A DNA stretch of 64,000 nucleotides from contig CAVYES010000008.1 in the NCBI GenBank assembly GCA_963767735.1, forward strand, positions 64,001 through 128,000, written 5' to 3'. Of the stretch, positions 30,857 to 50,540 are shown one piece after another. The stretch's first letter is position 1, and each line of letters begins with the position of its first letter. The notes beneath the pieces are model-generated. The model was not told where the DNA came from. It worked only from the letters and a program-made list of their open reading frames with translations, and ran no database searches. The stretch is from Candidatus Bathyarchaeota archaeon (GTDB lineage Archaea; Thermoproteota; Bathyarchaeia; Bathyarchaeales; Bathycorpusculaceae). Position numbers and translations under genes: made by a program.

Positions 30857-31123
30857 AAACGCTTTTTTGCATTGAGACCAGTTTGTTTTAGGTTTGCGTA
30901 AATATATTGATTCTCATACCTTTAATTGAGTAATAACTCCGTCAGGTTTAGTGACCTGTACCTTGTAAAACCTTAAAAAACCTGAAGGCTTCTTTTGATA
31001 ATTGGATGAAAACTCAATAAAAAAATTTTTACAAAAATAAGTTATTTCTTACTTCGGGCATCCGAGCAAGCATAATCGTTATCTCTGACTAAGTTGAAAG
31101 AATATCGAGGAGAAAAAAAAGCT

Positions 31124-32200
31124 TTGCCTAAAAGTTACACTTACACCGACGCAGGCGTAAACCGTAAACAACGTGCAGAGTCCAAAAAAGCGCTAAAAAA
31201 CCTCAAGGAAACTTACAAGTACAACCGCCTCGGCGTCATGCATCTACCATATGGCAACATTTTTCCAATTGGAGAAAACACTTTCCTTGACATGGTCATC
31301 GAAGGGGTAGGCACCAAAGTTCTCATAGCACAATTGGCACAGAAATATGACACCATAGGAATCGACGCCGTAGCCATGGCGGTCAACGACGTTATTCGTT
31401 CCGGAGCTAAACCACTCGCCATAGCAGATAACATACATGCACAAGAAAGCAACCCCGCGCTTGTAAACGCGTGGCTAAAAGGAATCATTCAGGGCGCAGC
31501 TCAAGCCGAATGCCCAGTTACTGGAGGAGAAACAGGCGATGTCGCTGAAATAATAAAGGGCTTAGCAGAAAACGCTGGGTTCGACATGGTGGTCGCTTCT
31601 GTCGGTGAAGTTGAGCGGCAAGAAATCATAACTGGAGAAAACATCAAACCCGGCGATCCGATAATAGGCTTAGCAAGCAGCGGATTGCATAGCAACGGCA
31701 TAACAATGGCAAGAAAAATTCTCTTTAAGCAATGGGGAGGAAAATACGAGCCAAACGACATCCCAGAAGGTTTAGACAGAGCAATTGTGCTCGAAGCTCT
31801 TGAACCAACAAAAATTTATGTTAAACCACTACTCAAACTAGCCAGCGAAGTTAGGGTCAAAGCAGCCGTGCATATCACAGGCGATGCCTACATGAAATTT
31901 AATAATTTGACCAGTTCTTCGTCCGGCATAGGCTTTGGATTCAACAACTTCAAACCCCAACCGATATTCGGGTTGATTCAAAAAACAGCCGCTGAACTAG
32001 GCTACATCATTACAGACGAGGAAATGTTCAAAACCTTTAACATGGGCTGGGGGTTCGGCATAATCGTTGACAAAACAGAAATCGATAATGCCATGAATAC
32101 GCTAGAGCAGGACAATGTAAAACCTGAAATAATAGGAAAAGTGACAGACAAACAAACCGTAGAAATAAAGCACAAAAACAAAATAATGACATTGACGTAA
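31124..32200 (+). CDS. purM: Phosphoribosylformylglycinamidine cyclo-ligase (likely start TTG 31124; ORF track starts 31094)
   Basis: YTDAGV, EGVGTK, AMAVND, GGET, SSGLHSNG, HITG, TFNMG. Confidence 0.95.
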   Translation: MPKSYTYTDAGVNRKQRAESKKALKNLKETYKYNRLGVMHLPYGNIFPIGENTFLDMVIEGVGTKVLIAQLAQKYDTIGIDAVAMAVNDVIRSGAKPLAIADNIHAQESNPALVNAWLKGIIQGAAQAECPVTGGETGDVAEIIKGLAENAGFDMVVASVGEVERQEIITGENIKPGDPIIGLASSGLHSNGITMARKILFKQWGGKYEPNDIPEGLDRAIVLEALEPTKIYVKPLLKLASEVRVKAAVHITGDAYMKFNNLTSSSSGIGFGFNNFKPQPIFGLIQKTAAELGYIITDEEMFKTFNMGWGFGIIVDKTEIDNAMNTLEQDNVKPEIIGKVTDKQTVEIKHKNKIMTLT

Positions 32201-32258
32201 AATTTTGCTTTTTTTAGTACAAAAGCGTTTAAATCTTCTAGCTTAATTTAAAGGCTTT

Positions 32259-32510
32259 ATGAAATACCGCGCTAAAATAGAAGTTAGCCTAAAACCAGGC
32301 CATAGCAATCCTGAAGGGGAAACAATAGCTCGTTTACTCAAAGAACTCAGCTACAAGATACAAGCCGTAGATGTGAGTAAAGTTTACACCCTCACCTTTG
32401 AAGCGCCAACATTGCAAGAAGCCAGCGCAAAAGCCGAAGAAATGAGCAAGCGCCTTTTGGCAAACCCAACCAAAGACAATTACACGATAAATGTTGAGGA
32501 GCAGAAATGA
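32259..32510 (+). CDS. purS: FGAM synthase subunit PurS
   Basis: LKPGHSNPEG, LLANP. Confidence 0.93.
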   Translation: MKYRAKIEVSLKPGHSNPEGETIARLLKELSYKIQAVDVSKVYTLTFEAPTLQEASAKAEEMSKRLLANPTKDNYTINVEEQK

Positions 32511-34888
32511 ACGCTAACCTCTACATCCCCCGCAAAGCCGGGTACGCGCTCTATGAAGTTGCAGTAGCAAAAGCCAGCGACCAACAACTCATCGAAATCA
32601 GCAACGAACTCGCCTTAGGCTTAAACCTGCAAGAAATGAAGAGCATACAAGCCTACTTCAAAGCGGAAGGCAGAAACCCAACAGATGTGGAACTGCAAAC
32701 CATCAGCCAAACATGGTCAGAACATTGCTACCATAAAACCTTCAAAGGAAAAATCCAAATCGGCGGCAAAGAAATCGAGAGCCTATTCAAAACCTTCATT
32801 GCAAAAGTCACAAAAGAAATCAGGGCGCCGTGGTGCTTCAGCGTCTTCGAGGACAACGCGGGCATTGTCCGCTTCGATAAAGGTTATGGAATAGCAGCAA
32901 AAGTTGAAACACACAACCACCCTTCGGCTGTTGAACCCTTCGGCGGCGCAGCAACCGGCGTTGGCGGCGTAATTCGAGACATCTTAGGTGTCTGGGCTGA
33001 CCCCATCGCATGCACAGATGTTTTAGGTTTCGGACCATTAGACTACGATTACAACAAGCTTCCTGCAGGAGTAAAACACCCAAAATACGTTTACATGGGC
33101 GTCACCGCAGGCATCAGCGCGTATGGCAATAACATGGGTATCCCAACAGTCAACGGAGCAATATACTTCGACGAAAGCTACACAGGCAACGTCACCGTCT
33201 ACTGCGGATGCATAGGTCTACTGCCACTAAACAAATTCACTAAAAATGCCAAACCAGAACACATAATCGTTTTAGCAGGCGGAAAAACAGGACGCGACGG
33301 CATCCACGGCGTCACTTTCGCCTCCGCCGAACTAACTGAAAAATCAGAAGAAATCTCCCGTCCAGCAGTGCAAATCGCCGACCCGATAGAAGAAGAAAAG
33401 GTCAAACGTGCGATAATTGAAATCCGCGACCTACAATTGGCATCGGCAACAACCGACCTTGGCGGCGGAGGCTTGTCCTCAGCAGTCGGCGAAACCGCTG
33501 AAAAATTCGATTGTGGAACAACCATCGAGCTTGACAAGGTACCGTTGAAATATCAGGGTTTGGCGCCATGGGAAATTTACATTTCAGAATCCCAAGAAAG
33601 AATGCTCATAACAGTACCACCTGAAAACCTCGAGCGGGTTATGGCGGTTTTTGAAAAAGAGGACGTTCAAGCCACAGCAATTGGCAAACTTACAACCGAC
33701 CGCCGCTTACAGCTTAATTTTAATGGTGAGAAAGTTGCCGACATGGACATGACTTTCCTGTTTAACCCCTGCGAAAGCACGAAAACGGCAACCATCGAAA
33801 CCCCAAACTTCACGGAACCAGAGTTTCCCCAGCCAGAAAACCTAACAGAAACCCTTCTGCAGCTTCTTTCGGCTCCAAACATTGCCAGCAAAGAAAGCGT
33901 CATACGCACTTACGACCATGAGGTAAAAGGAAACACCACTCTCAAACCCCTACAAGGAGAGTACGCTGGACCAAACGATGCAGCTGTGTTGAAACCCCTT
34001 GATGATTCATGGAAAGGCTTAGTTATTTCGTGCGGAATGAACCCGAATTACGGAAAAATTGATGCTTACTGGATGGCTGCTTCAGCTATTGATGAGGCAG
34101 TTAGAAACAACGTTGCCGTCGGAGGAAGAAGAATTGCGCTGCTGGATAATTTCACGTGGGGAAACCCTGAGAAGCCAGAGCGTTTGGGCTCGCTGGTAAG
34201 AGCCTGCGAAGCATGCTATGACTATGCCAGGGCGTATAAGACCCCGTTTATCTCGGGAAAAGATAGCCTCTACAACGAGTCCCCTCTTGGACCAGTTACG
34301 CCGACACTTCTAATTACCGCCATAGGCATAATCCCCAACATTCAATTCACCACCTCGATGGATTTGAAAGCAACAGACAACCTGCTCTATATCATCGGGG
34401 ACACATTCAATGAGCTGGGCGGTTCGGAATACTATAAGCTCAAAGGCCACTTAGGCGCAAACGTGCCCAAAGTGAAAGGAGCCAAAGCTAAACGCACATT
34501 CAGAACCGTCACTAAAGCCATCGATTCAGGCTTAATCAAATCCTGCCATGACCTTTCCGAAGGCGGGTTAGCGGTGGCGACGGCGGAGATGGCGTTTGCA
34601 GGCGGATACGGCTTAGAGTTAGATTTAGATAAAGTGCCATGCAAAGAGTTAGCGCGAAATGATTTTGTATTGTTTTCAGAGTCAAACAGCCGCTTCCTTA
34701 TGGAAGTCTCAGAAACTGACAGGCAGGAATTCGAATCTTTGATGAAGGGCAAAGGCTGTTGCCAAATTGGCAAAGTAACCAAAGACCAGAAACTGCTCAT
34801 CCACGGATTAAACCAAAAAATAGTTGTGGACGCCTCACTTTCAGAGTTGCGGCGTAGTTGGAAAAAAACATTAAGCGGGGAATCCTGA
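32507..34888 (+). CDS. purL: FGAM synthase subunit PurL
   Basis: WSEHCYHK, ETHNHPS, GRDGIHG, SESQERM, ISGKDS, HDLSEGG. Confidence 0.96.
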   Translation: MNANLYIPRKAGYALYEVAVAKASDQQLIEISNELALGLNLQEMKSIQAYFKAEGRNPTDVELQTISQTWSEHCYHKTFKGKIQIGGKEIESLFKTFIAKVTKEIRAPWCFSVFEDNAGIVRFDKGYGIAAKVETHNHPSAVEPFGGAATGVGGVIRDILGVWADPIACTDVLGFGPLDYDYNKLPAGVKHPKYVYMGVTAGISAYGNNMGIPTVNGAIYFDESYTGNVTVYCGCIGLLPLNKFTKNAKPEHIIVLAGGKTGRDGIHGVTFASAELTEKSEEISRPAVQIADPIEEEKVKRAIIEIRDLQLASATTDLGGGGLSSAVGETAEKFDCGTTIELDKVPLKYQGLAPWEIYISESQERMLITVPPENLERVMAVFEKEDVQATAIGKLTTDRRLQLNFNGEKVADMDMTFLFNPCESTKTATIETPNFTEPEFPQPENLTETLLQLLSAPNIASKESVIRTYDHEVKGNTTLKPLQGEYAGPNDAAVLKPLDDSWKGLVISCGMNPNYGKIDAYWMAASAIDEAVRNNVAVGGRRIALLDNFTWGNPEKPERLGSLVRACEACYDYARAYKTPFISGKDSLYNESPLGPVTPTLLITAIGIIPNIQFTTSMDLKATDNLLYIIGDTFNELGGSEYYKLKGHLGANVPKVKGAKAKRTFRTVTKAIDSGLIKSCHDLSEGGLAVATAEMAFAGGYGLELDLDKVPCKELARNDFVLFSESNSRFLMEVSETDRQEFESLMKGKGCCQIGKVTKDQKLLIHGLNQKIVVDASLSELRRSWKKTLSGES

Positions 34889-35703
34889 TGAACCAAGAAG
34901 AAATCAGAGTCTGCGTTTTGCGTGTCGGAGGAACCAACTGCGATGCAGAAACTGAGAGGACTTTTTTGGAGTTAGGTGTCCATGCGGAGACTTTGCACGT
35001 TAACGAGCTGATAAAACGCAAAAACCTGCTTGATTATCAGATGCTGGTTTTTCCAGGCGGCTTCTCATTTGGCGATTACGTGCGTTCAGGCGTCATTTTT
35101 GCACGGTGGCTCAGCGCCAAATTGGGCAGGGAGATTGAAACTTTTATTGATGAAGGCAGACCGATTCTGGGCATATGCAACGGCTTTCAAATACTGGTTG
35201 AATATGGTTTGCTTCCGGGCTTCGAAGGAATGAGCGCTTATCCAGAGGCGACATTGACAACTAATGAGCCAGCGGGCTTCAAGTGCCAGTGGGTTTACCT
35301 CAAAAACGAGAATAGAGGAAAATGCATGTTCTCAAGCAAAATCCCAGCTGGAAAGGTGGTGAGGATGCCGATTGCCCATGGAGAAGGCAGGTTGCTTTTC
35401 CCCAAAGAGAAGGAAAAGGAAATACTTGCAAAATTAATCGATAATGACATGGTGGTTTTCCGTTACTGCGACAAAGGCGGCAACGTTGCCGACGGCAAGT
35501 ATCCAGCAAATCCGAACGGCGCCTTTCATGACATCGCAGGCATATGTAACAAGGAAGGAAACATTTTCGGTTTGATGCCTCACCCAGAAAGAGCACTTTA
35601 TTGGTGGCAGCAACCTGACTGGACACGCCAACAGCAAATGCTACAATATGGCGACGGAAAACTAATCTTCCAAAGCATAATCGACAAACTAACCCAGAAA
35701 TGA
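34888..35703 (+). CDS. purQ: FGAM synthase glutaminase subunit PurQ (start ATG 34888 overlaps the purL stop)
   Basis: GTNCD, PGGFSFGDY, GICNGFQ, AHGEG, MPHPER. Confidence 0.95.
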   Translation: MNQEEIRVCVLRVGGTNCDAETERTFLELGVHAETLHVNELIKRKNLLDYQMLVFPGGFSFGDYVRSGVIFARWLSAKLGREIETFIDEGRPILGICNGFQILVEYGLLPGFEGMSAYPEATLTTNEPAGFKCQWVYLKNENRGKCMFSSKIPAGKVVRMPIAHGEGRLLFPKEKEKEILAKLIDNDMVVFRYCDKGGNVADGKYPANPNGAFHDIAGICNKEGNIFGLMPHPERALYWWQQPDWTRQQQMLQYGDGKLIFQSIIDKLTQK

Positions 35704-36020: not shown

Positions 36021-36500
36021 TTGTCAACCAAAATTAAAGTGGGAGACAAGGCGCAGGATTTCACTCTACCGGATATCGACATGAACCCCAGAGAACTAAA
36101 AGATTTTCTAGGACAAAAAATCGTATTGGCTTTCTCCGTTGACGCGTTCACATCAAGATGCACAAAAGAGATTTGTGAGTTCCGCGATTTCATATCTCGA
36201 CTTGTTGATTTGAATGTCCAAATTATCGGAATAAGCGCAAATGATCCCTTCACAAACACCGATTTCGCAGAAAAAAATAGGGTGGTCTTTCCAGTACTAT
36301 GGGACTACAGACGGCAGGTTTCCAAAACCTATGGTTTAGAATCGGAGAATTTTGCCGTGAACGAAGGCTACTCGGTTCCTAAACGCTCAATTTTTATCTT
36401 AGACTCGAAAGGTTTAGTGCAGTATGTTTGGGCTTCAGGTAATCCAGCAGCTGAACCAAACTATCAGGAAATACAGATGAAAATAAAAGAAATCATTTAG
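36021..36500 (+). CDS. Peroxiredoxin (AhpC/TSA, BCP-like)
   Basis: AFTSRCTKEIC, GISAND, KRSIFILD. Confidence 0.85.
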   Translation: MSTKIKVGDKAQDFTLPDIDMNPRELKDFLGQKIVLAFSVDAFTSRCTKEICEFRDFISRLVDLNVQIIGISANDPFTNTDFAEKNRVVFPVLWDYRRQVSKTYGLESENFAVNEGYSVPKRSIFILDSKGLVQYVWASGNPAAEPNYQEIQMKIKEII

Positions 36501-36734: not shown

Positions 36735-37649
36735 CTAGTAGAGAACTGTTAAATCCTTAGCGTAGGGCAAGCCTGCACGGGCACCCATCGCCGTAACGCT
36801 TCTTGAAGCTACAAAATTCCCCAGTCGTCCGCATTCGTAGAGGCTTTTTTTGGTAATTAAGCCGTAGAGGAAGCCTGCGCAGAAAGCGTCCCCAGCGCCA
36901 GTCGTGTCGACTGCTTTAACTGTGAAGGGTTCAATTCTTAGTTTCTGCTCGCCGTCTGTAACGTAGCAGCCTAGGCTGCCAAGTTTAACCGCGACAATTT
37001 TAACTCCCAGTCCAATCATTAAATCTGCGCCCTCACGGTAATCAGCTTCTCCTGATAAAAGCTCAAGTTCAACAGTGTTAGGTATCAAAACGTAAGAACT
37101 CCTAATTAATGGCTCAATAACCGCAAAACCCTTCTGTGCATACACCGAGCCAGGGTCAAAGCTGATTTTCACGGAGTTAGGTAGAGCAGCTAAGAGCTTT
37201 TTTTGTGCACGGAAAGATTTTTCGCCGACAAAAGAGGATTGATGAAGAAATTTTGTCTCAGAAAGATAACTGTAATTTATTTCTCGAGGTTCGATTGTAT
37301 CGTTGACGCCTGAGTTAACGTATAGCGCTCTTGCGCCTTTCTTATCCACGAAGCCCATTACTGAACCGCTTTTTCCATTTTTTGCCTGAATAATGCCGCT
37401 GGTGTCGACGCCTTCATTGCTAAAACAGTCAATTTGCAGTTTGCCTTCACGGTCATTGGCTACTTTGCCTATGAAACCAACTTTGCAACCGAGCCTTGCC
37501 AACCCCACAACAGTGTTTGCGGCGGAACCGCCACATGCTTCCGTATAGTCTTCTATGAAGCTTTCTTCTTCAGCGCCCGCAAGCCTTTCGGTCTTGAAGA
37601 GCATATCAACGTTAAGTGCGCCAAAACCTACAACATCAAACTTAGTCAT
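36735..37649 (-). CDS. PfkB/ribokinase-family kinase (EhaT-like)
   Basis: GGSAAN, SFDPG, PN..E, VKLG..G, VDTTGAGDAF. Confidence 0.9.
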   Translation of the reverse strand: MTKFDVVGFGALNVDMLFKTERLAGAEEESFIEDYTEACGGSAANTVVGLARLGCKVGFIGKVANDREGKLQIDCFSNEGVDTSGIIQAKNGKSGSVMGFVDKKGARALYVNSGVNDTIEPREINYSYLSETKFLHQSSFVGEKSFRAQKKLLAALPNSVKISFDPGSVYAQKGFAVIEPLIRSSYVLIPNTVELELLSGEADYREGADLMIGLGVKIVAVKLGSLGCYVTDGEQKLRIEPFTVKAVDTTGAGDAFCAGFLYGLITKKSLYECGRLGNFVASRSVTAMGARAGLPYAKDLTVLY

Positions 37650-38554
37650 GGAAACAACTCCTTTAACAATATTTTGTGTTCACCTAGTTTGCCTCCGTAG
37701 TTGCCAGCGGAAACTTTTACAACTCCGTCAATTCCGAGTATTGCTTCTATCCCGACTTTGGTGGCTTCTTTTACAGCTGCTAAGGACACGCCGTTATAAA
37801 CTATTTCGGCTATGTAGCCGACGTCTTCAGGCACACGAGATTCTTTGCCTATCTTTTTCTTTAGAGAAGGACAATAAAGATGATTTGTTGTTGGACCAAT
37901 TTTTGGAAAATGTGTTTCAGGCTTTGAGCCGGCAGAGCAGACGTCAAAGGGCGTAACTACACCAGTCACATTGTGTATGGCAACTAATGCTTTTTCTCCT
38001 GCTTGCTTTAGGGCTTGTTTTGTTTTGCACAGAACCCAAAAGTTTCCGCCCATGACACCGCGTGCATAGCCCAAGTACCGTTCAATAACGAAGTCAGGAA
38101 CCATCAAGGGAACAACGATAACCTCTCTGCCGTCGCGTTTTTCAACCCACTCGTACCCATCACCGCAGTGCCCAACAGTCTCCATCATGTCCATTTTACC
38201 TTCAGCTTTGGGCAAAGTGTCGTATACGGCGGTGAATGGCTTGACTAGGATGTCTTGGCGGATGCGGTAGGAAAGCTCAGTCTCAAATTTTCGCAGTGAT
38301 TGTTCAAAGGTTTTTTTGGGGTTTATTTCTCCCCAGAATTGCAGTATTGCACCTGATCGTTTGTCTGGGGTTTCTTTTTGGCTGAGGTATTTTTCGACGC
38401 CTCCTTCTGTTCTTCCGATCACAACAGATGGCGTTGCCGTTGAATCCTCAGCAGCCTTATGCAAAGTTTCTTCATCGTCTGCTGTGACGATTACTCGACA
38501 ATAAATTCCAGTGAAAGCTTCTGCGTACGTGTCCTCTATCTGCGCTTTTGGCAT
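37646..38554 (-). CDS. ftr: Formylmethanofuran:H4MPT formyltransferase homolog (Ftr-2 / EhaS-like)
   Basis: IEDTYAEAF, ETPDKRSG, GHCGDGYE, VPLM, GVMGGNF, SAGSK, PTTNH, VSAGNYGGKLG. Confidence 0.88.
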   Translation of the reverse strand: MPKAQIEDTYAEAFTGIYCRVIVTADDEETLHKAAEDSTATPSVVIGRTEGGVEKYLSQKETPDKRSGAILQFWGEINPKKTFEQSLRKFETELSYRIRQDILVKPFTAVYDTLPKAEGKMDMMETVGHCGDGYEWVEKRDGREVIVVPLMVPDFVIERYLGYARGVMGGNFWVLCKTKQALKQAGEKALVAIHNVTGVVTPFDVCSAGSKPETHFPKIGPTTNHLYCPSLKKKIGKESRVPEDVGYIAEIVYNGVSLAAVKEATKVGIEAILGIDGVVKVSAGNYGGKLGEHKILLKELFP

Positions 38555-39637
38555 TTATCCAAGCCCCCCAATGGCTACTCCTCGCACCTTTTTTCTGAAT
38601 TCGCTACTTTCTTTTACTATTGATTCCATATTTTGCGCTGTTAATATTTGAGCGTTAGGCAACGCGTTGGGATACAAATCTGTGAGCTTTTTTACCAAAA
38701 CATCGTCGACTCCGTATTTTTTGAGCGTACCATAACTCCAAGAGCAAATGGCGCTTATTGTTTTTTCTCTTCCAAACCTGCTGAACAAGTCAGCAATCAC
38801 TGCAGTAACAAGATTGCTATCGGACAAAACGGCTACTGCAGCATTTTTTACTGCGTAACTGTTTCCGTTGAAAGATATTGTTAAGCCTTCGTTGGCTCGA
38901 ACCAGTTTGAAGGCTTCCACGTCCGTTATGCTGTCGCCCACATACATCACATCCGCTAAATCTGCGCCCAAACGCTTCACGATATCCCGGATTGCCTCCG
39001 CTTTCTGTTCCCCGCCAACCGTTACCACGTCGATAAGGAATTTGCCGATGAACATCTTGGGGATTTCAATCCAGAAAACCTCGTCAAAACGCCGAATAAC
39101 CGTTTGGTCACTGGCTGAAAAATCTTCGATGTTTTTTGCGGATGGCGGGATATCAATTAAATGCATTTGCGCAATTTCTTGTGCTATTTCTTTTAGGCGA
39201 TCTTTTTCTTTCGGAGTGATGGCGCATTTGTCGAGGCTCACTTTGGTGCAGTAAGTGTTTTTGTATGGGAAGTCGAGGGCTTTGCATAGGGCTTTGATAT
39301 AGTGTTGGTAGCTTGTGCTGACGATAAAGGCATCAGTTATGGCTTGTACATGGTGAAGGGTAGCCTGGCTGTTAGCAATTAACATGATGTTTTTGGATGA
39401 GAAATCTTCCATTTGCCGGTCGGTTATGCCGTATGCTTTGAAGAAAGGCAAAATGAGCTTTAAGGTGCTACCGGCAGAGTAACCTGGTTTGTGCAGAATA
39501 TCCGCCAATACATCATCATATTTGCTGATGTTAGCGAAAAGTTGGTCTCCATTTGGAATAAAATTTGCTGCTAACTCATAGGCATTGTCGTTTTTTGAGA
39601 TTGGCCCTTCGCAGTCGGATATGAAGATGCGCTTCAC
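38555..39637 (-). CDS. HAD-superfamily protein (EhaR-like)
   Basis: Motif I DCEGP, VSTSY, K, motif IV YVGDSITD, SFNGNSYA. Confidence 0.82.
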   Translation of the reverse strand: MKRIFISDCEGPISKNDNAYELAANFIPNGDQLFANISKYDDVLADILHKPGYSAGSTLKLILPFFKAYGITDRQMEDFSSKNIMLIANSQATLHHVQAITDAFIVSTSYQHYIKALCKALDFPYKNTYCTKVSLDKCAITPKEKDRLKEIAQEIAQMHLIDIPPSAKNIEDFSASDQTVIRRFDEVFWIEIPKMFIGKFLIDVVTVGGEQKAEAIRDIVKRLGADLADVMYVGDSITDVEAFKLVRANEGLTISFNGNSYAVKNAAVAVLSDSNLVTAVIADLFSRFGREKTISAICSWSYGTLKKYGVDDVLVKKLTDLYPNALPNAQILTAQNMESIVKESSEFRKKVRGVAIGGLG

Positions 39638-41049
39638 GCCTTGCGCCTCAAACTGTCCATGTGGCGGATGCTTTTGGCTATATGCTGCTTTGAAGCAATG
39701 TCGTTTCGGTTCCAGAGTGCTCCGCCCGTGATTGCTTTGGCGCCTTCAAGGCTGATTTGCCGTGCTTCCTCAATGCTGCCTCCGATGCCTAAGATGCCGA
39801 CGGCGCGTGATTTGAGAGCGTAATTTTTGCCGTCTCGGATTTCCATTGAGCCGGGGTAAATGCGAATATTGTTACCGTATTTTGCTATTAGCGCTTGAGC
39901 CTTTGAAAGATCAATGGGACTGTTAATTGCTAGCTTATCAATTTTGTTTGGGAAAATGTCTGCGTAGCCTCCATAGTCCGAGGGAACTTTGTAAGTTAAA
40001 ACCGAGGCAGCGTTCTTCAATTTGACATTCGCTAGGCTGCCCTCTACCATTTCAAAGCATAACTCAACAAAATCATCCTGAATTAGCGGTAACAAATTTA
40101 TTATTTCTGGGTCGCCTGGACGACTGTTTATCTCAAGAACCTTAATGCCCTTGGCCGTATGCATAAAAGCAAGATATAATGGCACGCCTTTGAGCGCGGT
40201 GTCATCTTTGAATTTGGAGCTCCAGCCCCTGAAAATCTTATTAGCCAACGCCAACTCCTGCTCACGATCAGACACTCTTAAGAAGGGCAGTTTGTCGTCG
40301 GCGCCTTTGTATGAACCCATGCCCCCAGTGTTTGGACCCTTATCATCGTCGAATGCGCGCTTGTAATCCCGTGTGTCAGGGAGCGGCAGGAAATGTTTGC
40401 CGTCGCAGAAAGCCATGAAGCTGGATTCTTCCCCGTCGACCTTCTCCTCGATTATGACGCTACCATATTTGAAATTGGACATGAAATGCTCAAACAACTC
40501 TTCACGGTTGGCAAAATGGTCACCCCATACACCGACGCCCTTTCCTAAGGCTGGCTTATCAGGCTTCACCACTGCCTCGTTATCCAGCTCGTCTAGATAA
40601 CGGTACACATCGGCTTTAACGTCTCCATGATCCTTGTAGTCGGCTGGATTAAAAACCTTAAAGCGCGGGTTTGCCTCTGGCGCGATCTGAGCGAAAAGTT
40701 CTCGCTGTTCAACCTTGCTTACTTCTATTGCGTACCGTTGCTTGGGGCAAATGACTGGTATTCCTGTCCGTTTCTCAAGTTGGTCGCGGACGCCTTCTAT
40801 TATGGGTTTTTCTGAGCCAACAAGCGCGAAGTCGATTTTGTCCTTGTTTGCTTCTGCGAACTTGCAGATTTCCTCCACATCAAGGTTTGGTATGACGGCG
40901 TGTTTTGTCGCTTTCTCTGCGTTGAAAGGGTTGCACTGCTTGTCGGCGATGTAGAGTTCTACGTGGTATTTTGTGCTTTGTAGAAGGGCATCGACCATGG
41001 CGACTTCTCTTGCGCCGTAAGAAATGACCAGTACACCGATTTTTTCCAT
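39634..41049 (-). CDS. purD: Phosphoribosylamine--glycine ligase
   Basis: GARE, GKGV, EE..GEE, DYKRAFDDDKGPNTGGMG, EINSRPGDPE. Confidence 0.93.
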   Translation of the reverse strand: MEKIGVLVISYGAREVAMVDALLQSTKYHVELYIADKQCNPFNAEKATKHAVIPNLDVEEICKFAEANKDKIDFALVGSEKPIIEGVRDQLEKRTGIPVICPKQRYAIEVSKVEQRELFAQIAPEANPRFKVFNPADYKDHGDVKADVYRYLDELDNEAVVKPDKPALGKGVGVWGDHFANREELFEHFMSNFKYGSVIIEEKVDGEESSFMAFCDGKHFLPLPDTRDYKRAFDDDKGPNTGGMGSYKGADDKLPFLRVSDREQELALANKIFRGWSSKFKDDTALKGVPLYLAFMHTAKGIKVLEINSRPGDPEIINLLPLIQDDFVELCFEMVEGSLANVKLKNAASVLTYKVPSDYGGYADIFPNKIDKLAINSPIDLSKAQALIAKYGNNIRIYPGSMEIRDGKNYALKSRAVGILGIGGSIEEARQISLEGAKAITGGALWNRNDIASKQHIAKSIRHMDSLRRKA

Positions 41050-41109
41050 CGAGATACACCGTTATGCATAGAGAGTTGAGGAATCGCTTAATTTGCTTTG
41101 CTCAAACGG

Positions 41110-42591
41110 TTATGGCTGAACTTCGGTTGACTCGTAAATTCTTGTTTTTTCCTCGTAGCCTTCAAGGAATTTCTTTTTCATTGCGTCAGCCATTTTTTGT
41201 GCACATGGGGTTGGATACTTTCCTGTGATGCAGGCTAAACATAGCTGGTCTTCTGTTTGACCTGTAGCTTTTATTAATGCCTCAATGGATTGGTAGCATA
41301 CGTCGTCTGCGCCTATGATTTTAGCTATTTCCTGGGCGTTGTGTCTTGAGCCGACAAGTTGCCCGTAGGTTGACATGTCAATTCCGTAGAAGCAGGGTCC
41401 AATAATTCGTGGAAAAGTAACGAAGACGTAAACTTTTTTGGCACCTGATTTTCGCAGTTTATCGATAATTATTTTGGTTGTGTCGCCTCTGACTATAGAG
41501 TCTTCGGTTATTATAACTCGTTTTCCAGTAACTTTTGATCCTAAAATGTTGATTTTTTTATCGATAGTTGAGAAACGCTCAGCGTTCAGAAGTATGAAGG
41601 CTCGTTCGGTAACGTAACGGTGCCGCCTTGACGCCCGTTCCCAACGTAAACCTGATGCCTCATGGACGCCCATGGCTGGGTCATCGCCTGTTTCAGGCAC
41701 CGACAAAATTATGTCACTGTCCTTCACTATTTCGGGATATTCCTTAACGATGTTTCTCCCGAAGTCTTCACGAATCTCATAAACATATTTGCCGTTAAAC
41801 CTTGAATCAGGTCTGGAAAAATAAGCGTATTCAAAAGCGCAGAAAGCCTGATGGGGATTTGGAATAACTTGTATGCGTTTGAAGCCGTCCTTTGAAACCG
41901 TGACTAATTCGCCTGGTTTCAGTTCGAAATCTCTTACAAAACTGTTCATGTCTAAACTTACGGTTTCGGAGGAGAAAGCGTAGGTTGCTCCAGCGGGGTC
42001 GTGTCCAGCGCAGAGCGGTTTTATTCCAAGCGGGTCTTTGAAGGCGAAAAAGTCGCCGTCTCCAGTTATGCCTGTTACGGAGAATGCGCCATCTAAGCTT
42101 TCCATGACGGAGCGAACCGCGGAGGTTAAGTCTTTGCTTTGTTTAAGTCCGAGAAGCAGCTTATGACACACTAAGTCAGAGTCACAGCCGTACTGAAAGT
42201 CTTGGAAGTTTTCAGCCATTTCTTTTTTCAGTGGAGATGTGTTGACTATGTTGCCGTTAAATGAGAGGGCAAGTTTTATTCCGTTTTCGCTGGCGGTAAC
42301 TGGTTGAGTGCCTTGAATAAGTGAGGCGTCATCACATTTACCTGATGTGGTGTATCGAACGTTGCCGATGCCTATCGAACCCGGAAGCTGCCTGAACCAT
42401 TCCCGTATAGCCTCAGTTTTTAGTTTCGGAACCAAATCCAAGTTTTTGTATTCAAAAAATTGCTTGTCGCTGTACGTTAAAAAGCCGTGTGATTGGTGAC
42501 CTCGATGGTTTTGGGCTCGGAGACCCCAGTAAACATACGGAAAAACAGGTTGGTTTTCATAATTTATTACGCCAAAGATACCGCAGCCCAT
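41110..42591 (-). CDS. purF: Amidophosphoribosyltransferase
   Basis: CGIFG, HRGH, VRYTTSG, NGNI, FEYAYFSRPDS, EDSIVRG, PCFYGID, CLACITGKYP. Confidence 0.94.
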   Translation of the reverse strand: MGCGIFGVINYENQPVFPYVYWGLRAQNHRGHQSHGFLTYSDKQFFEYKNLDLVPKLKTEAIREWFRQLPGSIGIGNVRYTTSGKCDDASLIQGTQPVTASENGIKLALSFNGNIVNTSPLKKEMAENFQDFQYGCDSDLVCHKLLLGLKQSKDLTSAVRSVMESLDGAFSVTGITGDGDFFAFKDPLGIKPLCAGHDPAGATYAFSSETVSLDMNSFVRDFELKPGELVTVSKDGFKRIQVIPNPHQAFCAFEYAYFSRPDSRFNGKYVYEIREDFGRNIVKEYPEIVKDSDIILSVPETGDDPAMGVHEASGLRWERASRRHRYVTERAFILLNAERFSTIDKKINILGSKVTGKRVIITEDSIVRGDTTKIIIDKLRKSGAKKVYVFVTFPRIIGPCFYGIDMSTYGQLVGSRHNAQEIAKIIGADDVCYQSIEALIKATGQTEDQLCLACITGKYPTPCAQKMADAMKKKFLEGYEEKTRIYESTEVQP

Positions 42592-42969
42592 TTTCGGTTC
42601 CCCAATCGCAGTAAATGGGGATGAAGTGAAATACTGCTTTATCAGCTTTTAGTACAAATTTAAGTAAAAAGCATGGAGATTTTAACATTTTTAAGCTTTA
42701 ATGAAATGAAGAATAAGATTGGGAAAAACACCAAAAAAGGTGTGGAAAAGCTCTTTTTTTGTGGCTGAATTTTGGAGCAAAAATTAAGCAGGTCTATAGG
42801 TTAAAGCCAAACGTGTGCGTACGAGCCTACCCCATAGTCTGCTGGATAAGGCCTAATAGTCTCCAAACATGCTTTAACATACTTCAACATAGATGCAGCG
42901 CCGCGCACTTTCAACATGAAACAAGTGTTTTTGAATGTTGCAGCCGTTGATTTTATTGTAAAATAAATG

Positions 42970-43366
42970 CTATTTCTGCATGTATTCCAATAAGCCGAAG
43001 TGGTTGCCTTCAGGATCCAACGCCAGAGCCCACCAGCCCAATCCCGGAATCTCCATCTTAGGCACAACAATTTTGCCGCCCAACGCTTCAACCTTCTTGC
43101 TATACTCGTCCACTGATTCTACCCAAATATAGTTCGTTGGCTTAGCTTGACCCGGCATTGTAGCATCCTTTTTCAGAAAAAGCCCACCGTTTACGCCCGG
43201 TCGAATAGGCATCATCTTTATCATCGACTGGCACAGTTTGAAGCATATAATATTCTGTTGGTCCAGGATATTTTTCTATTTTCCAGCCGAAGAGGTCAAC
43301 ATAAAATTTTTTGAGTTTTTGGGCATCTTCAGCCGGGATTTCAAAATGCACAATTGTATGATCCAA
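42970..43366 (-). pseudogene. VOC/glyoxalase family protein, frameshifted near 43218
   Basis: N-terminal half (HFEIPAED..FYVDLFGW) and C-terminal half (VNGGL..DPEGNHFGL) are in different frames; one extra A in GATAAAGATG. Confidence 0.8.
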
Positions 43367-43554
43367 AAAAATCACCAGTAAACCCAATTCTTAAGGTAAA
43401 ATAAAAACTTGATTGAGCTGTCTGGCTTACCTAAACTTGCGCACTATAAGTTACTTATGTCCCGTAAGTAAAAAGTTTATGCCAATAAAATAGGGTTAAA
43501 TAATCTAAAAAATTTTTTACAAAAAATAAAAAATAAAGAAAGGAAAAGATTGTT

Positions 43555-48192: not shown

Positions 48193-50540
48193 TCACTCCT
48201 TCATTTTACGGATCATTCTTGGAAGCAACGTAGGGTCAGGAATTACTGTTTCTTTCCAGTCGTGCGCTTCAAGTATCTTTGTAAATTCGTCTTTAAGGGT
48301 CATTGGAACATCAGCCATTGTTCTCACGAAGAGATGCAGATCCTGCGGCATGCATCCGTAATGGCGTTTGTGTAAGTCGACATAGTGGCTTAGTTTTATG
48401 CTTCGTCCTTTCCAGGTGTCGTTTGGTCTTATGCATAGTTTTGCGATTGAGACCATTGCTTCTTGTGGGGTTTCAACTGTCTGGAACAGGTGCTCGGGTG
48501 CTGGACCAACGTTGACTTTGTCGCCTGTGCGGGCATCGTAAACTTCCCAATTTTCAGGCTTATCTTCTCTGCCAAGTAGCATTCGACGGTATTTTACGCC
48601 GTGTGGACCAACCAACACTGGCACGCCTAAGCGCCAGAATCCCGCTGCGATTGCCGCTGCTTTCTGTGAGTATGCACCCCAGGCTAAGCCGACTGCGCCA
48701 AGACGGTTATAGATGTAATCAGCGATTTCCTCATAGTTGCCTCTTAATGGACGCTTAGCGAAGATGTTTGCAACTTTTATGGCTGCGCCCGCAATGTGGC
48801 TGTTTGCCACGCATGAGCCTACGTTTAGAACTCCTCCAGCTTCGAATCCGCCTGGGAATTCTTCGTAGAGTGTTTTGCCTTCGCTGTTGCGGTAGCTGCC
48901 CGCTGACATGGCTGCGCATCCTGAGACTACAACTATGTATCTTCTGCTGGCGAATTCTCTGCATATATCGTAGACGTCTTTGCCGCCCTTTGGATAGTTA
49001 CTGCAACCCACTACTGCAAGGATGCCGGGGATTTCTCCAAGGACAATGGGGCTACCTACGTTTCGGATTTCAACATCTTGAACTGCGCCTCTTCCGCATC
49101 GGCACAGGTTATTTTCAGCAAGCATGAATTTCTCGCCGGCTTTCACTATCATGCTGTGCACCATTAGTTTCTGCGGGCAAGCTTCTTCACATCTTCCGCA
49201 TCCGACACAGTACTCGTACAAGTCAGTTAGTGGAGCCATGTCGCCTTCTCCGGCTGCTTTTATTGCTTGAGGAAGCTTGAGGTCTTGTGGACAGCTTCTT
49301 CGGCATAAGTTGCATTGTCTGCAGGTCTTAGCGAGTTGTTTGATCTCGTCGAAACTTGGGAGATTCTTCATCTTCTTGCGGATTGGAGCAACTTGCTGTG
49401 CCACTCTGACTGCGACTTCGCCGACCAATTCTGGGTCAAGGATTAAAACGCCGGGGATTTGCCGCTTACAAGGTCAGCAACGATTTCGTCCGCCGGGTCG
49501 TCTGTGCGATTCTTGAAGCCCATGCAATTCTTTTCTGATGCGGCAATGACTGGAGCGTGAACTTTCTGTGCTTCGTCAAAAACGTCTGTACGGACACATT
49601 GCTCGTCGAGAACGACGACATCCGCGAATCCTCCTCTTACGAAACGTAGTTGCCAGCTGATTGGACCGATGATTCTTCCACGGTTATAATATCTGGTTAT
49701 GTCATGTGCTGTGCAGCATAAGCCGACTACTTCGATTTTATCGTCAACTTTGTGGTCTTTTGCATAGTCGATGATTCCGACTGATGGAATTACGTTGTGT
49801 CCAATAGCCATGATGACTGGCTTAGACAAATCCACGCTGCCTATACCTAACGAGACGAGTGGTGCTTCAGGTTCAGCTTTGGGCATACCTAAAGTAGAAA
49901 CTTGAGCAATGTCACCAACTTCCATGCCCACGTGATCAATCATGCCAACGTGGAATGCCTTTGATTCAAAATCAAGATTGTTGCCTTCTTGGCCTGTGTG
50001 GGCTACTGCAAGGCATTGAGTAATTTCTTTTTCAGCGTATTCTAAAACGTCGTCAAGGTCGCCGAGTGTTTCAGGCTTTATTCCTGTGACTAAACGGGTG
50101 ATGGGTGCTTCAACTTTTATGTTTAAGCCGCCGATGTCTAAGGGGAATCTGCGACCGTACTTTTCAATTAGGTGATGGATCATATGGCGTGAGTGAGCGG
50201 TGTGGGTGGCAGATCCGATGCAGCAGGCTAAAAGCACGATACGAGAGGATTGAGCAGCCATGTCTATACCGCAAGCTCCGCGTTTTCCAGCTGTTAAATC
50301 GCATTTTCCAAAAGTGCAAAGACAACAAAGGTCACAATCGGGCATGTAGAAAGGCTTGTACCTGGCGAGAAGCTTCATGTCCCAATCTCGCAGGGTACTC
50401 ATGGAAGGCATTGGGGTTGGACCCATCGGTTCAGTATAGTTATCGTTTATAACCTTGCCAATGGACAATTCAAAATTTTTAATGAGACCGCTATTAGTCT
50501 GCATTTCGTCAATTTTTACATTAACGTTTTTAGTCGTCAA
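48193..50540 (-). pseudogene. cdhA: ACDS alpha subunit (CO dehydrogenase), split by a 1-nt frameshift near 49459 (real lesion or sequencing error)
   Basis: ORFs 49443-50540 (CDLCCLCTFGKC, GHN, CCT, DEQC) and 48193-49428 (two CxxCxxCxxxCP, GCSN, GSCV, SQKA) join as ..SGKIPGVLILDPELVGE.. if one A is added to GGCAAATCCCC. Confidence 0.92.

Follow-up and report, generated by a model that had tools for sequence, protein, structure and literature searches.

Which enzyme converts GAR to FGAR, the third step of purine synthesis, is the question raised by a purine gene cluster in a 64,000 nucleotides long stretch of Candidatus Bathyarchaeota DNA (the window). Genes for steps 1, 2, 4 and 5 are present here, together with a trio of genes encoding a HAD-superfamily hydrolase (HAD), a paralog of the formyltransferase Ftr (Ftr2) and a PfkB-family protein (PfkB):

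41110..42591, minus strand: purF-like (amidophosphoribosyltransferase, purine step 1), 493 aa; TIGR01134 and GATase_7
39634..41049, minus strand: purD-like (GAR synthetase, step 2), 471 aa; TIGR00877, GARS_N and GARS_A
38555..39637, minus strand: AF1437 / EhaR-like hydrolase of the HAD superfamily, 360 aa, GTG start; proposed module phosphatase
37646..38554, minus strand: Ftr2, proposed GAR or GAR-riboside N-formyltransferase, 302 aa; FTR and FTR_C
36735..37649, minus strand: PfkB-family (ribokinase-like), proposed module kinase, 304 aa; PF00294
31094-32200, plus strand: purM (step 5), over NCBIfam equivalog cut-off
32259-32510, plus strand: purS (step 4), over NCBIfam equivalog cut-off
32507-34888, plus strand: purL (step 4), over NCBIfam equivalog cut-off
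34858-35703, plus strand: purQ (step 4), over NCBIfam equivalog cut-off
36021-36500: peroxiredoxin ORF, between purQ and pfkB
from 43555, minus strand: cdh genes, upstream of purF

The original prediction described purD, HAD, ftr and pfkB as a tightly coupled unit downstream of purF, with purMSLQ about 1 kb away and cdh genes adjacent, and the coordinates bear this out. purD and HAD overlap by 4 nt (39634-39637), HAD directly abuts Ftr2 (38555/38554), and Ftr2 and PfkB overlap by 4 nt (37646-37649). The purMSLQ genes (31094..35703) are divergent from the purF-pfkB unit and lie 1 kb from pfkB. Both purF (full-length TIGR01134 match of 310.7 bits, cut-off 350) and purD (TIGR00877 240.9 bits, cut-off 288) are present in one copy each in the genome, as judged by tblastn.

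The missing third step

The step 3 enzyme, reported earlier as missing from the cluster, was also not found elsewhere in the genome. A genome-wide profile search gave no match to PurN (TIGR00639), and PurT (TIGR01142) was not found in the genome either; its top match (47.2 bits), which lies inside a 1091-aa frame, is carbamoyl-phosphate-synthase-like and was rejected as PurT. Because the assembly is 94.9% complete, absence of PurN and PurT is probable but not proven. The AICARFT domain of PurH was not found in the genome and two tandem PurP paralogs are encoded, so the second formylation is covered. The genome also encodes FwdA and the second, canonical Ftr (C5:329058) for which a search had been proposed, and therefore both formyl-MFR and formyl-H4MPT are made. 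Step 3 is the sole purine step that is unaccounted for in this genome.

Similar gaps have been described in other archaea. In Brown et al. (2011, PMC3261824), GAR formyltransferase was not found in Archaeoglobi, M. kandleri and four Methanobacteriales, the Methanobacteriales being without PurN and PurT, and duplications of PurP are remarked upon without explanation. Chadwick et al. (2022, PMC9012536) describe ANME-1 without PurN/PurT. They list M. kandleri, Methanothermobacter, Archaeoglobales and ANME-1 as carriers of Ftr2, the ANME-1 and Archaeoglobales copies grouping with that of Methanothermobacter. Both papers state that an unidentified enzyme must exist. The earlier statement that some H4MPT-using archaea are without purN/purT agrees with the lineages named in the former paper and with ANME-1 in the latter.

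Protein families of the trio

Ftr2 contains both Ftr lobes in full length, each scoring above its cut-off (FTR, residues 4-150, 150.4 bits; FTR_C, residues 153-300, 180.4 bits). It has the two-lobe fold family (PF01913 and PF02741) in common with Ftr (PDB 1FTR, 2FHJ, 1M5H, 1M5S) and with the bacterial Fhc-complex protein FhcD (6S6Y), and it matches A. fulgidus Ftr (1M5H) with 179 bits over its full length. The catalytic Glu position is occupied by E250, an invariant residue (42/42) among Ftr2 sequences that 93% of 42 canonical sequences (Ftr1) also have; Glu245 of M. kandleri Ftr is presumably the equivalent catalytic glutamate. All shared Ftr core residues are kept in Ftr2, including the oxyanion-stabilising Glu, which is Glu252 in FhcD (PMC6926001). 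Since the whole Ftr core is kept, Ftr2 might still be an Ftr isoenzyme.

However, Ftr2 is distinct from canonical Ftr in several respects. It falls under the cut-off of the canonical equivalog TIGR03119 (235.1 bits vs 292.6), and is 36-44% identical to Ftr1 (36% to the canonical Ftr of the same genome). A quick IQ-TREE run places the window copy in a separate 11-row clade (SH-aLRT 88), whose sister is a 37-row Ftr1 clade (support 100) holding the other copy of the genome; it is thus neither the sole Ftr nor a member of the canonical group, as the original prediction had anticipated. Profile scores fall into two groups, Ftr2 reaching at least 382 bits and Ftr1 no more than 284 bits. At eleven positions Ftr2 has an invariant residue that differs from Ftr1. 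Among these, three aromatic residues of Ftr1 are replaced (F to C130, W to I146 and Y to P249), and W74 and the invariant R99 (Gly in 60% of Ftr1) are new. Ftr2 is always accompanied by Ftr1 in the same genome, and its genomic links are to pur genes, HAD and PfkB, not to fwd/mch.

Pfam matches of HAD are confined to residues 156-279. Over its full length the protein resembles Archaeoglobus fulgidus AF1437 (PDB 1Y8A), a structural-genomics entry without function, both by sequence (E 5.9e-31, residues 4-294) and by fold. Foldseek comparison of the AlphaFold model (pLDDT 94.8) also points to 1Y8A (E 4.4e-21, TM 0.81/0.93), followed by phosphoserine phosphatases of the SerB/PSP type and MtnX. Invariant motifs are D8-x-E10-G-P, S107-T-S, K212 and G234-D-S-I-T-D239. 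In 8/8 sequences motif I reads D8-C-E10, and motifs II-IV are present and invariant. In contrast to phosphoserine-phosphatase-type enzymes, motif I is D-x-E and not D-x-D, as it is also in enolase-phosphatase, and the protein is 360 aa rather than about 210 aa in length, with large extra helical parts.

PfkB matches PF00294 over its full length (175.2 bits, over cut-off) but scores below the ribokinase equivalog TIGR02152 (168.4 bits vs cut-off 299.65) and below every other NCBIfam equivalog cut-off. It has the N-x-D, GG and DTTGAGD motifs in common with ribokinase and PfkB nucleoside kinases; G40-G41 and D248-T-T-G-A-G-D254, in the motifs GGSAANT and DTTGAGDAF, are invariant in 8/8 sequences. 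Lys43 of E. coli ribokinase (GGKGANQ) presumably aligns with the Ser of GGSAANT. The best solved relatives are a fructokinase and ribokinases (85-105 bits). PfkB orthologs of the module form a distinct group (244-404 bits, paralogs at most 205 bits). Judged from these residues, the active sites of Ftr2 (E250), HAD (motifs II-IV and the D-x-E variant of motif I) and PfkB (GG, DTTGAGD) look intact.

The same trio was named earlier as the end of the Methanothermobacter eha operon (ehaR/S/T). Kaster et al. (2011, PMC3087415) upholds this for EhaS (Ftr-like) and EhaT (ribokinase-like), genes without a function since the 1990s, whose Methanothermobacter homologs end the eha operon and are co-transcribed with the Eha hydrogenase. 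EhaR is a lead only, namely an automatically named Atlas cluster among the nearest neighbours of HAD (score 0.98). Orthology of the trio with EhaRST, based on the literature and that one cluster name, is putative. The window trio is located in a pur cluster instead, with purD, purQ/peroxiredoxin and, upstream, cdh as neighbours and eha genes absent around it; nor were eha genes seen beside the trio in the loci examined, which include no Methanobacteriales genome. Our literature search found no paper linking the missing GAR formyltransferase with EhaS/EhaT.

Conservation and distribution of the trio

Among 41 public loci with an Ftr2 at least 59% identical to that of the window (close loci), HAD and PfkB lie beside Ftr2 in 38 and purD as well in 34, so the gene arrangement is not due to chance; a contig end accounts for three of the misses. 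The divergent layout of purMSLQ and purF-pfkB is found in 26/41. In a sample of 201 Halobacteriota genomes (83 with Ftr2, 118 without), those with Ftr2 carry a PfkB ortholog in 83/83 cases and HAD in 77/83, all three being present in 77/83, and none of the trio occurs in 107/201. Five diverse genomes with Ftr2 contain PfkB in 5/5 and HAD in 4/5. HAD, Ftr2 and PfkB are a real module.

Synteny with pur genes, which had been proposed as a check, is evident in both Bathyarchaeia and Asgard archaea, where the trio is embedded in single-strand pur operons. The order is purF-purD-HAD-Ftr2-PfkB-purL-purQ-purM in Ca. Borrarchaeum (Asgard, L085), and purS-purQ-purL-purF-purD-HAD-Ftr2-PfkB (L120), purF-purD-HAD-Ftr2-PfkB-purE-purM (L119) and purL-purQ-purM-purD-HAD-Ftr2-PfkB (L059) at three further loci. 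This embedding recurs in two phyla whose pur proteins are just 29-41% identical. In a Promethearchaeia genome the trio is scattered, yet HAD follows purD and PfkB follows purM. L059 and L085 are the only ones of 26 lower-identity loci (25 at 44-58%, and L085 with 44%) in which the full trio is adjacent, and outside Bathyarchaeia it is mostly away from pur genes. Two ANME-1-like loci (L073, L064) read HAD-TPR-FBPase-PFK-aldolase-like-Ftr2. The gene before the PfkB ortholog in one genome (L102) encodes a FwdC-like GXGXG protein.

The anti-correlation with PurN/PurT implied by the original prediction holds in Bathyarchaeia and Halobacteriota and is only partial in Asgard archaea, where 9/22 genomes with Ftr2 also have PurN. 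The Bathyarchaeia sample comprises 151 genomes. The 60 with Ftr2 contain no PurN over cut-off, one PurN-like gene (sub-cut-off) and no PurT-like gene; the 91 without Ftr2 divide into 22 with PurN, 32 with PurN-like genes, 10 with PurT-like genes and 27 with none of these, 16 of the latter being also without PurD and 11 having it. One Bathyarchaeon with Ftr2 has a 175-bit PurT/PurK-like match. In Halobacteriota, PurN is found in 4 and PurT in none of the 83 genomes with Ftr2, and PurN or PurT in 111/118 without it. Ftr2, PurN and PurT are all missing from 7 Halobacteriota genomes (counted irrespective of PurD) and from 1 of the 5 Asgard genomes tested; these and the 11 Bathyarchaeia must reflect other solutions or gaps in the assemblies. 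Because related genomes do not count as independent cases, the raw numbers overstate the support. From gene content, the trio appears to replace PurN/PurT, Asgard archaea excepted.

One Bathyarchaeia family of 10 genomes (f11) includes six with PurT-like genes, one with PurN, two with Ftr2 and one with none. Its two Ftr2 genomes carry a trio-type PurD (222 bits vs 342-376 bits), which suggests that purD and the trio may have been transferred as a cassette. Across Bathyarchaeia, PurD beside Ftr2 scores 222-272 bits and that of PurN/PurT genomes 303-505 bits. However, families f8 and f15 combine low-type PurD with PurN-like genes in the absence of Ftr2, and in one genome (G025) Ftr2 has a high-type PurD as its neighbour.

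Proposed reaction, alternatives and known systems

The trio is probably an MFR/H4MPT-dependent GAR formylation module for purine step 3, in which the three proteins would act as one unit in MFR and H4MPT archaea without PurN and PurT. What has been observed is which genes are present, how they are arranged, with what they co-occur, a distribution complementary to PurN/PurT and the conservation of catalytic motifs; we infer the substrate, the formyl donor, the sequence of reactions and what HAD and PfkB do. With its Ftr catalytic core kept, Ftr2 would move a formyl group to the glycinamide amine, the donor being N5-formyl-H4MPT or formyl-methanofuran from the Wood-Ljungdahl/methanogenesis C1 pool. 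HAD would strip the 5'-phosphate off GAR, Ftr2 would formylate the glycinamide riboside, and PfkB would convert the formylated riboside to FGAR with ATP, making a near-isoenergetic amide-to-amide transfer irreversible. This riboside route is plausible and the likeliest of the routes considered, and we put it forward tentatively. The original reading of the trio as a GAR formylation module was supported on each point where sequence data could have contradicted it, the anti-correlation being only partial in Asgard archaea.

Ftr2 might instead formylate GAR itself, in its 5'-phosphate form, which would require neither phosphatase nor kinase. HAD and PfkB would then be accessory and off the main route, and could recycle dephosphorylated intermediates, supply ribose phosphate or regulate flux. 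The invariant R99 gained in Ftr2 could bind the phosphate. Nine Halobacteriota genomes, 4 of them with PurN, have the HAD and PfkB pair but no Ftr2, so the pair can have its own role, and the two genes are neighbours in at least 17 genomes of Halobacteriota even if Ftr2 is elsewhere. However, the co-occurrence of Ftr2 with PfkB and HAD in Halobacteriota is tighter than accessory proteins would be expected to show, the order purD-HAD-Ftr2-PfkB-purL mirrors that of the riboside route, and an operon that contains both a phosphatase and a kinase is sensible only if they act on different compounds. Direct formylation of GAR therefore seems rather unlikely.

A trio unrelated to step 3, with its pur linkage in Bathyarchaeia being secondary, is improbable. 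Ftr2 would then be an Ftr isoenzyme, or an MFR/methanopterin or sugar-phosphate enzyme, with a sugar or cofactor precursor as the substrate of HAD and PfkB. Such a role would fit the gene order of the two ANME-1-like loci, the FwdC-like protein at L102, the kept Ftr core and the co-transcription with Eha hydrogenase in Methanothermobacter (PMC3087415). However, 84 Halobacteriota genomes have Ftr1 without Ftr2, and these together with the 107 trio-less genomes indicate that the trio is not needed to make or use MFR/H4MPT. Embedding in distant pur operons, the pairing of HAD and PfkB each with a pur gene in a third lineage (Promethearchaeia) and a distribution complementary to PurN/PurT also speak against it. 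Involvement in another purine reaction is very improbable. The module could serve AICAR (step 9) or glycine formylation, in which a divergent PurD would ligate N-formylglycine to phosphoribosylamine; GAR formylation might then fall to one member of the tandem pair of PurP-like ATP-grasp proteins. PurN and PurH are mostly found together, so anti-correlation with PurN alone fits either step and cannot separate them. PurT acts solely at step 3, and it is present in 10 PurN-less Halobacteriota and 10 Bathyarchaeia genomes, none with Ftr2. Step 9 is covered by PurP, although the duplication of PurP, without explanation in PMC3261824, would suit this alternative. The distinct low-scoring PurD beside the trio would suit it too, but the exceptions in f8, f15 and G025 do not, and the formylglycine idea gives HAD and PfkB no role.

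If the proposed step 3 function is true, the trio would fill the GAR formyltransferase gap of Methanobacteriales, Methanopyrus, Archaeoglobi and ANME-1, and most Bathyarchaeia with the Wood-Ljungdahl pathway and some Asgard archaea, to which the candidate is extended here, would use it as well. It would possibly be a third, non-homologous path to FGAR, an MFR/methanopterin-dependent 'dephospho shunt'. One candidate would join two puzzles, the hole in GAR formylation and the Ftr-like and ribokinase-like genes at the eha end; EhaR/S/T would gain a function, drawing formyl units from the Eha-replenished pool, and the anaplerotic role of Eha would get a reason. Neither folate nor free formate would stand between purine C8 and the Wood-Ljungdahl/methanogenic C1 pool, the direct link being an energy-metabolism enzyme recruited for nucleotide synthesis. 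The annotation of genes now labelled 'formylmethanofuran--tetrahydromethanopterin N-formyltransferase' or 'ribokinase' would be corrected in thousands of cases, and methanogen metabolic models, now gap-filled at GAR formylation, would change.

Among known systems, EhaRST of Methanothermobacter matches the trio in annotation (EhaS as Ftr, EhaT as ribokinase, and the EhaR-named cluster as a lead) and differs in its place at the end of the eha operon. PurN and PurT have the same proposed product, FGAR, and the same place in pathway and operon, and show the complementary phyletic pattern of analogous enzymes; the riboside route would also equal PurT in its cost of one ATP. However, both are unrelated to the trio in sequence and fold, do with one protein what would take three, and use a folate-bound formyl group (10-formyl-THF, PurN) or free formate (with ATP, PurT), whereas the donor proposed for the trio is bound to MFR or H4MPT.

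Gene content around the trio and the purine pathway of the genome

An ORF listing and two family scans reproduce, exact to the base, the gene layout on which the original prediction was built, from purF to pfkB with its overlaps and with purMSLQ nearby. The genes, with family scan scores for purF and purD, which fall below their NCBIfam equivalog cut-offs, are as follows.

42591..41110, minus strand: purF-like gene (310.7 bits, cut-off 350)
41049..39634, minus strand: purD-like gene (240.9 bits, cut-off 288)
39637..38555, minus strand: HAD hydrolase of 360 aa
38554..37646, minus strand: Ftr-like protein (Ftr2)
37649..36735, minus strand: PfkB kinase
31094-35703, plus strand: purM-purS-purL-purQ, 1 kb from the trio unit, with a peroxiredoxin ORF in between

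The purD and HAD frames overlap by 4 nt, as do those of Ftr2 and PfkB, while HAD and Ftr2 abut. Despite their sub-cut-off scores, purF and purD are the sole copies in the genome according to tblastn. The cdh (CODH/ACS) genes start 960 nt upstream of purF. The 960-nt spacer (window 42592-43554) holds short ORFs only, one of which (43387..43142) gives a partial match to a glyoxalase/bleomycin-resistance N-terminal domain and is possibly a gene remnant. The gene for the CODH alpha subunit, cdhA (window 48193-50540, minus strand), is represented by two ORFs that lie in different frames, 50540..49443 covering Prismane positions 129-315 and 49428..48193 covering the Fe-S domains and Prismane positions 348-485, which could reflect a frameshift, a fault in the assembly or a genuine split of the gene. 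Contigs from two peat metatranscriptome runs of one study match short pieces of purF, purD, HAD and PfkB at 90-99% identity, and one of 169 nt spans the purD/HAD junction, a coverage too thin to speak for expression or co-transcription, and from which the uncovered parts permit no conclusion either.

The names borne by near-identical proteins assign the organism to the Bathyarchaeia. In the genome carrying the window (3.04 Mb, 10 contigs, 94.9% complete), neither of the usual step 3 enzymes was found: PurN gave no match and the best PurT match reaches only 47 bits, within a frame of carbamoyl-phosphate-synthase size. The second, canonical ftr that a paralogous role of Ftr2 would call for is present: it lies on contig C5, matches the FTR N-lobe with 190 bits and is 36% identical to Ftr2. 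Formyl-methanofuran is made as well, because FwdA is encoded (793 bits). The AICARFT domain of PurH was not found in this genome, and the second purine formylation has a formate-dependent enzyme, since two tandem PurP (DUF1297) paralogs of 250 and 219 bits lie outside the window (G000:C7:109925-111564). Judged from the sequence, the conversion of GAR to FGAR is thus the only step without a candidate. PurP duplications are noted as unexplained in the relevant part of Brown et al. 2011 (PMC3261824), and one of the tandem copies could act on a different substrate.

Ftr2, HAD and PfkB as a conserved module

A search with Ftr2 against 1.84 billion representatives returned 571 relatives. A quick IQ-TREE of 55 full-length rows places the window Ftr2 within an 11-row clade (SH-aLRT 88), whose sister clade of 37 rows (support 100) contains the other Ftr of the genome, so that the two copies belong to separate clades. 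The same division is seen in Bathyarchaeia, where Ftr2 orthologs are at least 48% identical and Ftr1 at most 44%, in the cleanly bimodal profile scores of Halobacteriota (Ftr2 at least 382 bits, Ftr1 at most 284 bits) and in those of Asgard archaea (Ftr2 357 bits or more, Ftr1 no more than 268 bits, with one additional fragment). The Ftr core is kept in Ftr2, including E250; the aligned glutamate is described in the part of Hemmann et al. 2019 on this residue (PMC6926001) as stabilising the oxyanion. Comparison of 42 Ftr2 with 42 Ftr1 sequences reveals 11 invariant Ftr2 positions that differ from Ftr1, among them three replaced aromatics (F to C130, W to I146 and Y to P249), and W74 and R99 are new in Ftr2. 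A three-cysteine site (C130/C206/C228), seemingly invariant among 11 sequences, was dropped at this larger sampling, as C206 and C228 are frequent in Ftr1 too (48% and 81%) and C130 alone is specific to Ftr2. No fusion with HAD or PfkB occurs among the long Ftr-containing representatives, which are joined to FwdA-like amidohydrolase or FwdC-like GXGXG domains or carry extra stretches without a Pfam match; a 558-aa frame around the PfkB match of genome G269 is likewise no fusion but a long open frame amid crowded overlapping ORFs.

The HAD protein belongs to the family of PDB 1Y8A (AF1437; E 5.9e-31). Its structure model (pLDDT 94.8) gives TM scores of 0.81/0.93 to 1Y8A, followed by phosphoserine phosphatases, and the four HAD motifs show no variation, motif I reading D-x-E. 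The GG and DTTGAGD motifs are retained in PfkB. Bacterial members (Thermodesulfobacteriota) make up most of several among the Atlas clusters nearest to the HAD family, which may therefore extend beyond archaea.

HAD and PfkB lie beside Ftr2 in 38 of the 41 close loci, defined by an Ftr2 at least 59% identical to that of the window. The trio is accompanied there by purD in 34, purF in 30 and purL in 26; purD is missing from seven, three of which are truncated by a contig end. In other lineages the three genes are mostly dispersed yet co-occur. Five diverse genomes with Ftr2 (Alkanophaga, a Methanocellales MAG, Pyrohabitans, a Promethearchaeon and a Hydrothermarchaeon) all encode the PfkB ortholog (244-367 bits, paralogs at most 149 bits) and four encode HAD. 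Among 201 evenly sampled Halobacteriota, each at least 85% complete, Ftr2 is present in 83, all of which have the PfkB ortholog and 77 HAD, whereas 107 genomes have none of the trio and nine have HAD and PfkB without Ftr2. HAD and PfkB adjoin in at least 17 genomes of this sample, and the full trio is adjacent in two (G226 and G183). Four related Halobacteriota (G193, G202, G172 and G210; loci L108-L111) carry an Alba-HAD-PfkB cluster together with PurN and without Ftr2. HAD and PfkB may serve a purpose there that does not involve Ftr2, or these genomes may have been caught in the middle of a replacement.

Purine operons and distribution relative to PurN and PurT

Synteny of the trio with pur genes is borne out by single-strand operons in both Bathyarchaeia and Asgard archaea. 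That of Ca. Borrarchaeum (Asgard; L085) reads purF-purD-HAD-Ftr2-PfkB-purL-purQ-purM; the pur proteins encoded there share only 29-41% identity with those of the window. Others read purL-purQ-purM-purD-HAD-Ftr2-PfkB (locus L059), purS-purQ-purL-purF-purD-HAD-Ftr2-PfkB (genome G033) and purF-purD-HAD-Ftr2-PfkB-purE-purM (genome G011). A Promethearchaeon with a dispersed trio has purD followed by HAD and purM followed by PfkB. Each of the three genes thus has a link of its own to pur genes.

Other neighbourhoods were also observed. ANME-1-like MAGs (L073:4489-10873 and L064:1553-6528) carry, in this order, HAD, a TPR protein, an FBPase of class V (PF01950), PFK (PF00365), a protein resembling class II aldolases and Ftr2, so that the trio genes are tied to sugar-phosphate enzymes and not to pur genes. 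In a Ca. Pyrohabitans genome (G153; L102:535-1383) an FwdC/FhcC-like GXGXG protein lies immediately upstream of the PfkB ortholog; in the bacterial Fhc complex, FhcC is the platform on which FhcD, a homolog of Ftr, docks (PMC6926001). A conserved protein of 303-307 aa, without any Pfam match, stands head-to-head with Ftr2 in four Promethearchaeota loci (within L079-L083), where transglutaminase-like genes adjoin.

Occurrence of PurN and PurT in genomes with and without Ftr2 (raw counts without a probability, related genomes not being independent)
Bathyarchaeia (151 genomes), 60 with Ftr2: PurN over the cut-off 0, sub-cut-off PurN-like 1, PurT-like (at least 225 bits) 0
Bathyarchaeia, 91 without Ftr2: PurN 22, PurN-like 32, PurT-like 10, none 27
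Halobacteriota (201 genomes), 83 with Ftr2: PurN 4, PurT 0
Halobacteriota, 118 without Ftr2: PurN or PurT 111, none 7
Asgard (111 genomes), 22 with Ftr2 plus one fragment: PurN 9, PurT 0
Asgard, 89 without Ftr2: PurN 44, PurT-like 3, none 42

The anticipated anti-correlation with PurN and PurT holds in Bathyarchaeia (PurN in 0 of 60) and Halobacteriota (4 of 83) but only partly in Asgard archaea, where 9 of the 22 genomes with Ftr2 have PurN. All nine belong to a lower-scoring Ftr2 subgroup, and the remaining 13 are without PurN. One Bathyarchaeia genome with Ftr2 has a 175-bit PurT hit, below the PurT-like threshold. PurD is also absent from 16 of the 27 Bathyarchaeia with neither Ftr2, PurN nor PurT, which probably do not synthesize purines, and from four of five checked Asgard genomes with none; five of the seven such Halobacteriota have HAD and PfkB. 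These counts show the pattern of analogous gene displacement, in which the systems coexist in some lineages, as E. coli likewise keeps PurN and PurT together.

Family f11 of Bathyarchaeia (10 genomes: PurT-like in six, PurN in one, Ftr2 in two, none in one) points to replacement by a purD-HAD-Ftr2-PfkB cassette, because its two Ftr2 genomes have the trio-linked PurD type (222 bits, against 342-376 bits for the high type of their eight relatives); this suggests that the cassette moved by transfer. PurD scores are bimodal across Bathyarchaeia (222-281 and 303-505 bits), the low type going with the trio, and both types are present in one genome (G073). The PurD type was rejected as a sign of a changed substrate, since it follows lineage more than Ftr2, and for the same reason it gives the formylglycine idea no support. 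Divergent PurN-like formyltransferases (52-106 bits, cut-off 150; frames of 270-340 aa) in families f8, f15 and f18 and in genome G027 are probably GAR transformylases missed by the NCBIfam cut-off; those of f8 and G027 directly adjoin purD.

Possible reaction and relation to known systems

The data tie the module to step 3 and show Ftr2 as its only formyltransferase. The acceptor would be the amine of glycinamide, which could sit in the methanofuran (MFR) pocket much as the aminomethylfuran of MFR does, with N5-formyl-H4MPT as donor, or in the pterin pocket, in which case formyl-MFR would be the donor. The constant company of a phosphatase and a kinase would be best explained if HAD acted before and PfkB after the transferase, taking GAR through glycinamide riboside and formylglycinamide riboside to FGAR. 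Such a riboside route fits the gene order purD-HAD-Ftr2-PfkB-purL, would cost one ATP, equal to PurT, and would pull a near-isoenergetic formyl transfer (4.4 kJ/mol for the Ftr reaction as given in PMC6926001). However, HAD and PfkB occur without Ftr2 in the four PurN-bearing Halobacteriota, and the new invariant arginine of Ftr2 could bind phosphate, both of which argue against the riboside route as an obligatory one. We regard this route as plausible, at somewhat less than even odds. The wider proposal, that the trio is the missing GAR formylation system, stood up to all sequence-based tests run and is probably correct.

Such a system would bear on a labelling problem. M. stadtmanae must fill its H4MPT/MFR pool from serine, and therefore C8 drawn from this pool would be expected to come from acetate C2 there. 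This would resolve the conflict recorded in the labelling section of Brown et al. (PMC3261824), namely that acetate C2 supplies C8 in M. stadtmanae and not in M. smithii. Linkage to eha would fit the withdrawal of formyl groups from a pool refilled by Eha, for which an anaplerotic role has been described (PMC3585446).

A full-text search, outside which lie most subscription journals and supplements, found no paper linking glycinamide ribonucleotide formylation to methanofuran or Ftr; it gave only Kaster et al. (PMC3087415) for ehaR, ehaS and ehaT, and only Chadwick et al. 2022 (PMC9012536) as relevant to missing PurT/PurN and Ftr in methanogens. In the passages of Brown et al. 2011 (PMC3261824) on this step, GAR formyltransferase is reported as not found in two Archaeoglobi, four Methanobacteriales (printed there as Methanomicrobiales) and M. 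kandleri, and no candidate enzyme is named. The corresponding passages of Chadwick et al. report that the Ftr2 copy of ANME-1 clusters with those of Archaeoglobales, M. kandleri and Methanothermobacter, and that ANME-1 are without PurN and PurT and another enzyme must exist, and do not join these two points. If the trio does carry out step 3, it would give a known family of enzymes a new function and would be a new solution, non-homologous to PurN and PurT, for a reaction that these carry out elsewhere.
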